In this document: positions 28,954-31,473 of the stretch, piece after piece | Position numbering within the stretch: the first letter of the stretch is position 1 | Layout of the letters: every line of letters begins with the position of its first letter | IMG/VR virus record: IMGVR_UViG_2773857937_000001 | Span: 2,960-66,959 of that record | Strand: one strand, 5' to 3' | DNA: 64,000 bases | DNA from: a virus | The notes under the pieces: model-generated | What the model was told of the DNA's origin: nothing | The model's database searches: none | What the model saw: only the letters and a program-made list of their open reading frames with translations | Program-made: the position numbers and the translations under genes

Positions 28954-30042
28954 TTATCGGGACTTGGAGAATGTTTTATCTCCATTTGCCCAGCCATCGT
29001 CAAAATCTACTTCGCCGGGGCGGATCATCGTTGCATGCGGTTGAACATCAGACCAGTTCATGTTGTTTGTAGCCCAATCTTCGATCTCAAACGTATCGCT
29101 TTGAAATAAAGGAAGGGTATATCGCTCCAAGCTGTCTTCAAGTGAAATGTCATGTTTTTTTGCATAATAAGCCGCATGATGACGGGCTATAACATCAGTG
29201 GGAATCTGCCATACACTGTTGTCCGGCATGGTCACATTCATAAATTTGGTCATTGGGAAGCGTGCCATAACGCTGTTAATCCCGGAGAAGCGGCCCTGAA
29301 CACGACTGCGATATTTGTCAGTGTCTTTTCCACCATAGCGTTTTGTTACCATATCCAAATATTCCGGCGTAACGAGCGGGCTATCTTCCGCGTTTAATGA
29401 GATTGCAGTATACAAACTGGTCGGATTACCTGGACCTTTGGCTAATTTATGATGTGAGTCGTAAAAATGACCACTGTTTTTTTCTGGATCAGGAATGGAA
29501 AATAAAATTAACCCGTTATCCTTTTCCGTTAAACCCCCTCTGATAACACCAAAACACTCATCAGAAACATCACTGGCATTCAGTACGATATAAAATAAAT
29601 GTTCAGCTACTGCACCAGCCAGTGATTCAGGATTTTTTGTACTAAGGCACGAACCTTTCCAAAAGCGTTCTGTTCTTGAAACCAGTGTGTTATTGCTTAG
29701 CTTAAAATAATTATCCAGCCATGGAGCCTTTTTCAAAGCACATTTCCACATGGGTGATACATTTCTCCCCATGATAAGCGGAGAAGCATTACATACGTAT
29801 GCCTGTGACATCGGGTATAGGATTGTGCGGATGATGAGAATTGCGGCCGCCATAGTCTTCGTGCCTACGCCTTCCCCTACAGATACAGTAGTCATCGAGC
29901 TATTACCTTGGGCACTTTCAAGAACGAGCTTTTGCTGCTTAGTAGGTTCACAGCCCAATAGCTCTTCCATCGCCAGTGGCCAGTTATTCTGATATTTAGC
30001 CACCAGGTCTTGCCAGCGTGGATCTGTAATTGCATTTTCCAT
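28954..30042 (-). CDS. PacB-paralog: terminase-large-subunit ATPase-domain homolog with degenerate Walker motifs (dbn position)
   Basis: Alignable within the window to PacB 11828-13315 (DPRW..LV..Y...W; PWL.NYF; [60 protein letters not shown]). The P-loop is GEGVGTKT where PacB has GHGTGKS. Walker B DE is replaced by LN. The nuclease half is missing. Confidence 0.65.
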   Translation of the reverse strand: MENAITDPRWQDLVAKYQNNWPLAMEELLGCEPTKQQKLVLESAQGNSSMTTVSVGEGVGTKTMAAAILIIRTILYPMSQAYVCNASPLIMGRNVSPMWKCALKKAPWLDNYFKLSNNTLVSRTERFWKGSCLSTKNPESLAGAVAEHLFYIVLNASDVSDECFGVIRGGLTEKDNGLILFSIPDPEKNSGHFYDSHHKLAKGPGNPTSLYTAISLNAEDSPLVTPEYLDMVTKRYGGKDTDKYRSRVQGRFSGINSVMARFPMTKFMNVTMPDNSVWQIPTDVIARHHAAYYAKKHDISLEDSLERYTLPLFQSDTFEIEDWATNNMNWSDVQPHATMIRPGEVDFDDGWANGDKTFSKSR

Positions 30043-30074
30043 AGGAACATCCTTTTAAACGTTTAAATTGCTTA

Positions 30075-31433
30075 CTAACTATTTTCTTCCCATTGGGGAC
30101 CGGCATAGTTATCAAACCGGGAATACTGGCCGTTGAATGTAAGACGTACAGTGCCTATTGGCCCGTTACGCTGCTTACCGATAATGACTTCGGCAACGCC
30201 TTTGAGATCGGTGTTTTCGTGGTAAACCTCATCACGGTAAATAAACATGATTAAGTCAGCATCCTGTTCTATCGAGCCGGATTCACGCAGATCGGAGTTA
30301 ACTGGCCGCTTGTCTGATCTCTGCTCAAGCGCGCGGTTAAGTTGTGACAGGGCCACGACGGGTACTTGCAATTCCTTCGCCAGTGCTTTCAGGGATCGCG
30401 ATATTTCCGCGATCTCAAGCGTACGATTATCTTTCAACTCTGGCACGCGCATCAGCTGGAGGTAATCGACCATGATCATGCTTAGGCCGCCATGTTCCCG
30501 ATATAAGCGACGTGCGCGCGAGCGAACTTCTGTCGGGGTAAGGCCGCTGGAATCATCAATGAAGATATTCCGGTTTTCTAACAGGATCCCCATGGTTCCC
30601 GAAATTCGAGCCCAATCCTGATCGTCCAGTTGCCCGGTGCGAATGCGCGTCTGGTCTACACGCGAAAGCGACGCCAGCGAGCGCATCATTAACTGGTCGC
30701 TGGGCATTTCCAGGCTAAATACCAGCGCTGGCTTATCACTATTTATGGCGGCATTTTCTACCAGGTTCATCGCAAACGTGGTTTTCCCCATGGAGGGCCG
30801 CGCGGCGACAATAATGAGATCTGAAGGCTGTAGGCCAGCCGTTTTCTTATTCAGGTCAGTGAATCCCGTATCGAGGCCTGTTACGCCATCATGGGGGGAC
30901 TGAAACAACGTCTCAATTCTGGCTACCGTTGAATCGAGAATACTGGTGATATCCTTCGGCCCAACATCTGGCCGCTGCCGTTTTTCTGCGATACCGAACA
31001 CCAGGCGCTCGGCCATATCCAATAGCTGATCACTGCTACGGCCATTTGGGTTAAAACCAGCTTCGGCGATCTCGTTGGAAACGCTGATCACCTCCCGGAC
31101 AACGGCTCTTTCTCGTACGATGTCTGCATATGCGCAAATGTTAGCGGCGCTTGGGGTGTTTTTGGACAGTTCGGCCAGATATGCAAAGCCCCCTACCCGG
31201 TCCAATACGCCCAACCGTTCAAGAGATTCCGATAGTGTGATCAGATCGAGGGGGCAGCCATTTTCCTGTAAACGCCCCATTTCGGTGAAAATTTGACGGT
31301 GTTGGCGGGTATAGAAATCATCAGCCACTACGCGCTCAGCGACATCATCCCAGCGTCCGTTATCCAACATAAGACCACCAAGAACTGCTTGCTCTGCCTC
31401 AATCGAATGAGGCGGCGATTTGATTTCACTCAT
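30075..31433 (-). CDS. ban: Ban, DnaB-family replicative helicase
   Basis: DnaB N-terminal domain, Walker A RPSMGKTTFAMN and the RecA-like fold, with a C1 operator immediately upstream, as in P1 Op72-ban. Confidence 0.85.
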   Translation of the reverse strand: MSEIKSPPHSIEAEQAVLGGLMLDNGRWDDVAERVVADDFYTRQHRQIFTEMGRLQENGCPLDLITLSESLERLGVLDRVGGFAYLAELSKNTPSAANICAYADIVRERAVVREVISVSNEIAEAGFNPNGRSSDQLLDMAERLVFGIAEKRQRPDVGPKDITSILDSTVARIETLFQSPHDGVTGLDTGFTDLNKKTAGLQPSDLIIVAARPSMGKTTFAMNLVENAAINSDKPALVFSLEMPSDQLMMRSLASLSRVDQTRIRTGQLDDQDWARISGTMGILLENRNIFIDDSSGLTPTEVRSRARRLYREHGGLSMIMVDYLQLMRVPELKDNRTLEIAEISRSLKALAKELQVPVVALSQLNRALEQRSDKRPVNSDLRESGSIEQDADLIMFIYRDEVYHENTDLKGVAEVIIGKQRNGPIGTVRLTFNGQYSRFDNYAGPQWEENS

Positions 31434-31456
31434 GACAACGCTCTTTTAGTAAAGGC

Positions 31457-31473
31457 GATAAATTAGAGCAATT
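31457..31473 (-). promoter_or_regulatory. C1 operator (ATTGCTCTAATTTATCG on minus strand), Op72-like, upstream of ban
   Basis: 13 of 17 match. The core ATTAGAGCAAT is intact. Confidence 0.6.

Follow-up and report, generated by a model that had tools for sequence, protein, structure and literature searches.

The minus strand of the window, that is, the whole 64,000-nt stretch of viral DNA analysed here, carries at 28954–30042 an ATG-initiated open reading frame of 362 aa (hereafter X), whose product consists of two modules, a catalytically dead PacB-type ATPase domain and a C-terminal domain (CTD). As described in the earlier note, X lies directly 3' of ban (30075–31433, minus strand), which encodes a DnaB-type replicative helicase (Pfam DnaB_C, 4.7e-107; DnaB, 1.8e-35), and the gap between the ban stop codon and the X start codon is 32 nt. 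A Shine-Dalgarno-like AAGGA, read from the sequence, is located 7 nt 5' of the X ATG (30050–30054, minus strand). A terminator scan identified a hairpin terminator 3' of X (GCCCCG-TTAGAG-CGGGGC with a T-rich tail; 28924–28941, minus strand), placed between X and a baseplate gene that converges on it and stops at 28923, and the identical hairpin is found 3' of the X homolog in the related locus L006. Further upstream, a terminator-like hairpin 3' of a Band_7 gene (31674–31694, minus strand) sets that gene apart from the unit comprising a small ORF, an operator-like site and ban. This organisation supports a single predicted transcription unit in which ban lies upstream of X. Within X, Met260 (S-V-M-A-R-F-P) represents a possible internal start; the residue is kept in the three closest homologs and not in the E. 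coli clade, and no convincing Shine-Dalgarno was found for it.

The operator-like site, located 29 nt 5' of the ban ATG (31456–31472, minus strand), reads ATTGCTCTAATTTATCG and resembles the operators of the C1 repressor. It includes the exact 11-nt core of the P1 C1 operator, ATTGCTCTAAT, at 31462–31472 (minus strand). Nine exact copies of this core occur in the window against 0.04 expected, and it is present at the equivalent position 5' of ban in five of six related loci. By comparison with the operator consensus given in the P1 annotation (NC_005856), the site probably acts as a C1 operator, and the proposal that X is expressed from a C1-controlled ban unit agrees with these sequence features. 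A simple sigma-70 promoter scan detected no convincing promoter at the operator-like site.

A megablast search of the region against phage and plasmid collections returned only short ban matches, indicating that the collections searched hold no close sequenced relative. Because a word-indexed search with the full-length query proved insensitive (4 and 10 matches), homologs of X were collected by an exhaustive HMMER search, and intact homologs were found at 92%, 64% and 36–39% identity.

A terminase ATPase domain without catalytic motifs and its C-terminal partner

The first module (residues 1–253; 29284–30042, minus strand) is a non-catalytic domain of the terminase large-subunit ATPase type. 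The window also encodes its active paralog, PacB (11828–13315, plus strand; 495 aa), with intact GKS and DE motifs and a nuclease domain, preceded as in P1 by pacA (10638–11828, plus strand), whose product is a small-terminase-like PacB partner with an N-terminal HTH (Pfam HTH_23). BLASTP aligned residues 2–252 of X with residues 4–259 of this PacB at 42% identity over 260 columns (E=7e-62), so that the similarity of roughly 40–50% previously proposed for the ATPase domain was confirmed far beyond chance. Both proteins belong to PHROG 5902. X has a TerL-type ASCE ATPase fold with terminases as its best structural matches, and its AF2 model reached a pLDDT of 91. It is likewise about 40% identical to P1 PacB, with homology to this protein and its orthologs across the whole ATPase domain, including the N-terminal segment, the QQ motif, G[HY]FYDSHH and SPLV. 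In genomic position, however, the two differ: X lies about 15.6 kb from pacA–pacB (10638–13315), apart from the small-subunit gene and the late packaging operon, and belongs to a putatively early, operator-bearing unit, whereas PacB of P1 is associated with the late pac promoter.

The N-terminal segment preceding the Q motif contains six residues (W10, L13, Y17, W21, A24 and L28) that are invariant in alignment A1 and thus common to the X family and the three P1-type PacBs included there; among 47 active PacB-like terminases, only Y17 reaches 75% conservation. In lambda gpA, this segment of the terminase is the site of small-subunit binding. PacA may be regarded as a candidate binding partner of X. 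The common residues are largely hydrophobic and may instead represent an ancestral structural core.

The catalytic motifs of the domain are degenerate. Walker A reads V-G-E-G-V-G-T-K-T in X (29854–29880, minus strand) and S-G-H-G-T-G-K-S-D in PacB, and Walker B reads Y-I-V-L-N-A-S (29572–29592, minus strand) and Y-I-I-D-E-A-S, respectively; the disrupted P-loop and the replacement of DE by LN that the earlier note had pointed out are therefore real. X departs from the Walker A consensus [G/S]xxxxGK[ST], with Thr at the aligned Lys position, and its YIVLN departs from the Walker B consensus hhhhDE. In total, the Walker A Ser, His, Thr and Lys, the Walker B Asp-Glu, a conserved His and the motif III Thr-Arg are lost. 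The same pattern extends over the 12 proteins of the dead clade, none of which has the aligned Walker A Lys, while the Walker B Asp is gone in all and the Glu is retained in one. The clade has lost K63, D163, E164, H154, T194 and R195 and has retained QQ38-39, G[HY]FY, SPxV and YGG. All 56 active PacB-like proteins possess GK[ST] and [DE]E, and the 14 short paralogs possess neither. The first module has thus kept its fold and lost all ATP-binding and hydrolysis motifs, and this family-wide loss across Walker A, Walker B and motif III bears out its description as catalytically dead. In X, P0003 and P0074, a K-[TS] pair is present one residue out of register (in P0075, the shifted Lys is followed by His), which might suggest an active non-canonical ATPase operating through the shifted lysine (G-T-K-T). 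Such an activity is highly improbable, as P0001, 92% identical to X, has Thr in place of Lys62, which is therefore not constrained, the shifted Lys is missing in most of the clade, and the Walker B Asp, His154 and the motif III Thr/Arg have been lost as well.

C-terminal to the ATPase domain, X differs from P1 PacB in lacking the RNaseH-like nuclease domain and in carrying a foreign domain. Residues 253–362 remained unaligned with PacB in BLASTP, and a Pfam scan found no Terminase_6C match in X. The absence of the nuclease half had been recognised before; what had been missed is that this is not a mere loss, since an independent domain of about 95 aa occupies its place. This CTD (residues ~265–360; 28963–29250, minus strand) is a small alpha/beta domain that is not derived from PacB. 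It matched the C-terminal region of PHROG 17928 (hmmscan, E=2e-37) and the A2 profile (hmmsearch, E=1.9e-45) and contains the family motifs MPDxSxW...DWAxNNMNW...GWxNG. The CTD is a separate conserved domain, not the remnant of a truncation. Its unnamed family includes Xanthomonas phage CP2 ORF36, Bordetella phage PHB04 gp107 and proteins of about 100 aa in lambdoid prophages, and in many phages it constitutes a stand-alone early gene. Whereas these relatives occur alone or with other partners (DUF1351 in CP2 ORF36), the domain in X is joined to a dead terminase domain. The predicted fold of the CTD in X corresponds to that of phage homologs in BFVD, where the fold search gave only uncharacterised homologs. 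Sequence-profile comparison with the PDB yielded nothing below E=0.4, and neither X nor the CTD nor the stand-alone dead domains gave a match in Pfam, NCBIfam or PADLOC. One seemingly stand-alone CTD of 103 aa (P0007) was found to be an annotation artefact within an intact ORF of 367 aa.

The disappearance of every catalytic motif and of the nuclease domain could also be expected if X were a functionless leftover of a pacB duplication, now in decay. The evidence of selection and conservation effectively refutes this reading, which retains very little probability. Calculated against the 92%-identical homolog, dN/dS was 0.139 for X as a whole and 0.155 for the dead domain alone, compared with 0.029 for ban. 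Moreover, the ORF has stayed intact in 162 plasmids and in homologs as distant as about 35% identity, AF2 models X with confidence, and X has its own Shine-Dalgarno and terminator. X is a genuine gene, maintained by selection, and its product has two modules. With a dN/dS of 0.14 and intact homologs at 36–92% identity, exaptation of a terminase domain, as suggested at the outset, is a fair reading.

Distribution and genomic settings of the family

The dead paralogs form a clade sister to P1-type PacB, and the clade is old. All of its contexts examined were P1-like elements. The dead domain and the CTD are fused in the order seen in X in two subclades and in the reverse order in P0076; near two stand-alone dead domains (L014 and L017), no separate CTD gene was found within 6 kb on either side. 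Full-length proteins of the X type are encoded by 162 of the 753 matching plasmids (ca. 22% of P1-like plasmids), the carriers being plasmids of E. coli and Salmonella. Neither module was found in the P1 genome, and P7, D6 and most P1-like plasmids are also devoid of the X gene.

The settings of the two modules vary. X or the CTD follows ban, directly or past one small ORF, at seven loci (the window, L005, L006, L020–22 and L105). In the Salmonella relatives, X is directly 3' of ban as in the window; in the P1-like plasmids L005, L020 and L021, a stand-alone CTD gene takes this position, and in L022 one small ORF intervenes. Elsewhere, the dead domain is located 3' of ssb-isaA, ref or dmt (hrdC-dmt), or of a Tad2-like gene and isaA. 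The link to ban is thus not a property of the dead domain. The ssb, ref and dmt operons are C1-controlled in P1, and these homologs, together with the operator core 5' of ban, suggest that X is expressed early. In E. coli P1-like plasmids, the X homolog is located two genes 3' of the Tad2-like (PF11195) gene, with isaA in between. The cassette of isaA and dead PacB represented by AXF39147.1 (Punavirus MH422554, annotated as 'terminase large subunit') has the same two-module architecture as X, with 36–39% identity over the full length and the same loss of catalytic residues, and differs in following isaA (in the ssb operon or beside the Tad2-like gene) instead of ban. No isaA homolog was detected in the window, and IsaB, considered as a possible homolog of X, showed no similarity to it.

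The slot held by X, directly 3' of ban and convergent with the baseplate genes, is that of dbn in P1, where it is non-essential (PMC10695390). Comparison with P1 Dbn (YP_006544.1), which had been raised as a possible counterpart, revealed that the two share the slot only: Dbn is annotated as a possible glycosyltransferase and has no sequence similarity to X (BLASTP E=0.27), which is therefore not the dbn product.

The proximity to ban may point to an accessory role in replication or recombination, in which X would load Ban or work together with it, or would bind DNA ends or forks, through its RecA-like scaffold and the CTD. This role would be in line with the position of X directly 3' of ban in the window and the Salmonella relatives, and of the CTD, directly or past one small ORF, at the four plasmid loci mentioned above, with the occurrence of family members 3' of DNA-metabolism genes (ssb, ref, which encodes a RecA-dependent nuclease, and hrdC-dmt), and with CTD neighbours such as DnaB, lambda P, RecT, Gam and the pol III theta subunit. 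However, the partners vary by lineage, which suggests only a common early timing. Of 79 viral loci with a stand-alone CTD, only 8 had a gene for a DnaB-type helicase within 8 kb, and the upstream neighbours were heterogeneous early genes; a general linkage between the CTD and DnaB was accordingly rejected. Searches of Pfam, NCBIfam and PHROGs revealed no likeness of X to the DnaC/DnaI AAA+ proteins, lambda P or other loaders. In addition, P1 has neither module and yet its Ban works, and ban itself is non-essential in P1 (PMC10695390). A replication role is thus unlikely, and the suggestion of a helicase loader or partner made in the earlier note gained no specific support.

Possible functions of X

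X can serve neither as motor nor as nuclease, and its action is therefore probably one of binding alone, in which it would imitate the ATPase domain of the terminase. Pseudoenzymes commonly regulate, or compete with, their active paralogs. In this mechanism, X would occupy the element's own PacA/pac complexes or PacB assemblies early in lytic growth, its occupancy would modulate the timing or frequency of pac cutting, and the CTD would contribute another interaction, of a kind generic to early phage proteins. The packaging apparatus (PacA/pac or PacB) is considered the likeliest target, but this target and the tuning of pac cleavage are, taken together, less probable than not. In favour of it are the sister position of the clade to P1-type PacB, its occurrence in P1-like elements in every context examined, and the N-terminal residues common to X and P1-type PacBs. 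P1, P7, D6 and most P1-like plasmids package their DNA without X, and any role in packaging must therefore be dispensable; X would be an accessory modulator and not a core component of replication or packaging. The occurrence of the CTD in phages with unrelated terminases argues against a packaging target, and an accessory for counter-defence or host interaction would be no less compatible with the variable slots, one of them next to a Tad2-like anti-defence gene. A binding-only terminase mimic that modulates its own packaging nevertheless offers the best explanation overall, at somewhat less than an even chance.

Counter-defence is a less probable alternative. An early terminase look-alike devoid of ATPase and nuclease activity might interfere with host sensors (Avs1-3 and Upx), for example by filling the pocket of the sensor and yet not permitting it to oligomerise, while the CTD would act as a second mobile module for host interaction. 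Avs2, Avs3 and Upx have the ATPase domain of TerL as their direct ligand, and the first two recognise it through the bound ATP and features of its active site (PMC13601566). The features read by these two sensors are exactly those lost in X, and early expression would place X ahead of PacB. The patchy accessory spread (162 of 753 matching plasmids with a full-length gene, and none in P1), the variable slots with a Tad2-like (PF11195) gene nearby in E. coli plasmids, and the stand-alone CTD genes in early accessory regions next to Lar, Mu Gam, Nmad5 and RecT are also consistent with such a role. In contrast, X without an ATP site should bind Avs2 and Avs3 less well and would be a poor competitor (PMC13601566), so that its losses may mean 'invisible to sensors' instead of 'inhibitor'. 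X matched no PADLOC model and no named anti-defence Pfam family, our literature searches revealed no terminase decoy, and the main clade is limited to P1-like elements, although any TerL would fool sensors that recognise the fold. By description, T4 vs.8 is a parallel, a stand-alone ATPase-like protein homologous to the terminase ATPase domain and separate from the real terminase (PMC13601566). Like X, it is a phage-encoded paralog; unlike X, which has lost Walker motifs A and B, it is reported to retain both and to trigger EcAvs2 (PMC13601566).

For annotation, the analysis defines two uncharacterised families, namely the dead PacB-N clade, whose members are at present annotated as 'hypothetical' or mistakenly as 'terminase large subunit', and a widespread early-phage domain of about 95 aa that has no solved or recognisable fold in Pfam and PDB searches. 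The X family is easy to test, being non-essential by distribution and, in its full-length type, present in about 160 sequenced plasmids, and P1 genetics is mature. Few phage proteins are as conserved as the large terminases, which are detected directly by several immune sensors of bacteria. Within this setting, X would be a new kind of player that could regulate the start of packaging or target host immunity by mimicry. Our literature search found no described pseudo-paralog of PacB or of any terminase. We tentatively propose, as a possibility that is more doubtful than probable, that P1-like phage-plasmids carry mobile, terminase-derived pseudo-ATPases, in many cases joined in one order or the other to the new domain of about 95 aa, that serve as early TerL mimics and either blunt Avs1-3/Upx or competitively regulate pac cleavage. 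If this is true, X would be the first described pseudoenzyme of a viral packaging motor.

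Inactivation of the PacB-type ATPase module

The 362-aa product of the minus-strand ORF at 28954–30042 (hereafter X) had been described in the earlier note as a catalytically dead paralog of PacB, the large subunit of the P1-type terminase, and all factual elements of that finding were borne out. Residues 2–252 of X aligned to residues 4–259 of the PacB in the window with 42% identity over 260 columns (BLASTP, E = 7e-62). The P-loop was broken (VGEGVGTKT in X, SGHGTGKS in PacB), the Walker B Asp-Glu was lost (YIVLNAS versus YIIDEAS), and the nuclease half was absent, with residues 253–362 giving no alignment to PacB. 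PacB is homologous to X but active, carries the nuclease domain and is expressed late. P1 Dbn, the 'downstream of ban' product with which a comparison had also been proposed, was unrelated to X (E = 0.27).

HMMER, run exhaustively over 1.84 billion representatives, returned 1584 matches, and 73 retrieved proteins matching the N-terminal domain were aligned and sorted by motif. Both GK[ST] and [DE]E were found in 56 proteins, mostly of 450–585 aa with a few shorter fragments, and neither motif in 14 (252–367 aa, plus one of 444 aa); the other three were fragments in which one of these motif columns was missing. Of the 14 dead proteins, 12 grouped as a single clade, which the neighbour-joining tree placed as sister to the P1-type PacBs. 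Residues conserved in 75% or more of 47 active PacB-like terminases served as the reference for the dead clade. Of these, it retains the QQ motif, P-loop glycines, G[HY]FY, E..SP.V, YGG and G.F; gone are Ser, His, Thr and Lys of Walker A, Gln92, His154, Asp and Glu of Walker B, and Thr-Arg of motif III. The lysine that X carries out of register (K62) is replaced by Thr in a 92%-identical homolog and is therefore unconstrained. The inactivation of X is ancient and family-wide. Residual ATPase activity is effectively excluded by the clade-wide loss of catalytic residues.

The remaining two dead proteins, P0101 and P0228, branched elsewhere in the tree. Both are short (268–270 aa), lie on contigs of 2.5–2.9 kb and are without the Walker A Lys and Walker B Asp-Glu; they may reflect either a dead terminase paralog that arose independently or long-branch attraction.

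Selection was estimated against the 92%-identical homolog, which lies in the same synteny on a Logan assembly contig (L006). The dN/dS was 0.139 for the whole gene, 0.155 for the dead ATPase module and 0.068 for the C-terminal module, with ban as a control at 0.029. Intact homologs were also found at 64% identity in a 97-kb Salmonella contig (L105) and at 36–39% identity in E. coli. X is a functional gene under selection, and pseudogene decay is effectively excluded by dN/dS and conservation.

The C-terminal domain and its pairing with the ATPase module

Residues 263–360 of X matched the C-terminus of PHROG 17928 (E = 2e-37) and 69 clusters, mostly proteins of about 100 aa without a Pfam domain. 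This C-terminal domain (CTD) is a separate, widespread family. Across 79 IMG/VR loci it nearly always stands alone as a gene of about 100–180 aa, with a DnaB helicase within 8 kb in only eight; the genes preceding it are of various early types (DnaB, lambda P, RecT, Mu Gam, Nmad5, pol III theta and Lar), and homologs occur in early regions of lambdoid prophages. In a P1-like plasmid (L005, an 89-kb Salmonella contig), a 98-aa protein 79% identical to the CTD begins at the ban stop codon, as do the stand-alone CTD genes of two viral contigs (L020, L021); a 96-aa ORF separates ban from the CTD gene in L022. One CTD homolog, fused to a weak DUF1351 match, is the C-terminal part of Xanthomonas phage CP2 ORF36; another is the N-terminal part of Bordetella phage PHB04 gp107.

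Dead ATPase domains likewise stand alone, at about 250–266 aa (P0075, P0078–P0081, P0224). The fused ATPase–CTD architecture occurs in two separate subclades, and P0076 (L013 6001–8384) places the CTD ahead of the dead ATPase; this protein is truncated by a 548-aa transposase-like ORF encoded on the other strand, of the Tn3 family by reading of its sequence. That the modules are fused in either order argues for their functional cooperation. A Met at the domain boundary (S-[VI]-M-A-R-F-P) is common to the closest homologs, and an internal start there could yield a free CTD. The intact 367-aa ORF of L105 (4209–5312; GCA_018041245.1) is annotated at source for its last 103 codons only (P0007).

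The ban–X unit and its surroundings

The window is a distant P1-like phage-plasmid, with pacA–pacB at 10638–13315, hrdC–dmt at 34904–38595 and tail and baseplate genes of P1 type that run convergently toward the X region; no close DNA-level relative was found in phage or plasmid collections. X starts 32 nt past the stop of a DnaB/Ban-type helicase gene (ban, 30075–31433), with a Shine-Dalgarno AAGGA 7 nt upstream of its ATG. Hairpin terminators lie downstream of X (28924–28941) and upstream of the unit (31674–31694).

The 17-nt consensus operator of the P1 repressor C1 gave ten matches in the window with up to three mismatches (0.3 expected), and the exact core ATTGCTCTAAT occurred in nine copies (0.04 expected). 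One copy (31462–31472, minus strand) lies 29 nt upstream of the ban ATG, and five of six related loci keep a core at the matching place, even with differing flanks. Two further operator-like sites, 28 nt apart (34237–34281, minus strand), lie on the ban side of dmt and the following 205-aa ORF, much like the divalent ban operator directly after dmt in P1. The ban region may have C1 sites at both a distal and a proximal position. As for the proposed C1-controlled expression of X with ban, the operator-like site and terminators are present, from which we infer that the unit would be co-transcribed under C1; a promoter scan located no promoter for it.

Several small features were observed nearby. 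A 42-codon ORF (31478–31606, minus strand), flanked by a Band_7 lipoprotein gene on one side and the ban operator on the other, encodes a hydrophobic peptide whose tail is basic (MNILQLVFDHPVFSIVLLLVVFSGVEGLIKASKRPKSKVKKN); L006 has a 42-aa gene call in the same place. A sub-threshold match to the Rfam sRNA STnc100 (32781–32906, minus strand; 34.7 bits, gathering score 47, E = 8e-5) was found in the unannotated stretch that separates the Band_7 operon from a crAss001_48-like gene. The ORFs of this stretch are all short and on the minus strand, reaching 55 aa at most (33406–33573), and no tRNA was found there; the equivalent place in P1 has a dicF-like region and tRNAs. A 130-aa ORF in the dmt–ban interval (33695–34087, minus strand) matches Pfam PF21825 (crAss001_48-related), labelled 'Sequestin' in a precomputed table for L006.

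Distribution and possible targets of X

X is accessory in distribution and located in early, operator-bearing units. It was matched by 753 PLSDB plasmids, with a full-length X-type gene in 162. The dead domain follows ban in the window, L006 and L105, ssb–isaA in IS1-free punaviruses and ref in L014; in L017 it separates dmt from the gene that comes after dmt in the window, and in one P7-like plasmid it lies near pacAB–c1. The complete P1 genome has neither module; its ssb–isaA slot holds isaA–IS1–isaB (NC_005856 21569–24132), where IS1 may have displaced a dead paralog, and its ban–dbn slot is non-essential (PMC10695390). The variable adjacency to early DNA-metabolism genes is the one line of support for a replication or recombination partner, as the earlier note had suggested, a role that we rank third and regard as improbable.

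The dead-PacB gene of E. coli P1-like elements is always preceded by an IsaA homolog, the stop of the one overlapping the start of the other (L001 4184–6065; L106 1696–3589). The pair occupies two different slots and therefore behaves as a mobile two-gene cassette in this clade. Many E. coli plasmids of 87–99 kb carry dut, a Tad2-like gene, the IsaA homolog and then the dead domain; in rep_cluster_1704 plasmids, the Tad2-like gene (Thoeris anti-defence 2-like, PF11195) and dut lie just 5′ of the cassette (L106 1027–1689; L107 1282–1722). This neighbour, the patchy, mobile and accessory nature of X, and the reading of the ATP-loaded terminase active site by Avs2 and Avs3 and of the ATPase core by Upx (PMC13601566) point to host terminase sensors as a second-ranked, doubtful target.

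We infer that X acts by binding only. Ranked first of the three, as a tentative possibility, X would target its own packaging apparatus (PacA/PacB/pac). This packaging target is favoured because the dead clade is sister to PacB, co-residence with PacAB is strict, X retains a PacB-type N-terminal segment, and pseudoenzymes generally behave in this manner.

A literature search found no publication on a catalytically dead terminase paralog, and database records name family members 'hypothetical protein' or, misleadingly, 'terminase large subunit'. The closest known relatives are PacB and T4 vs.8, a stand-alone terminase-ATPase-like protein that has intact motifs and triggers Avs2 (PMC13601566). 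In X, a pseudoenzyme form of the terminase ATPase domain is joined to an uncharacterised domain of early phage genes, and the protein represents a non-catalytic, re-fused subfamily of TerL.
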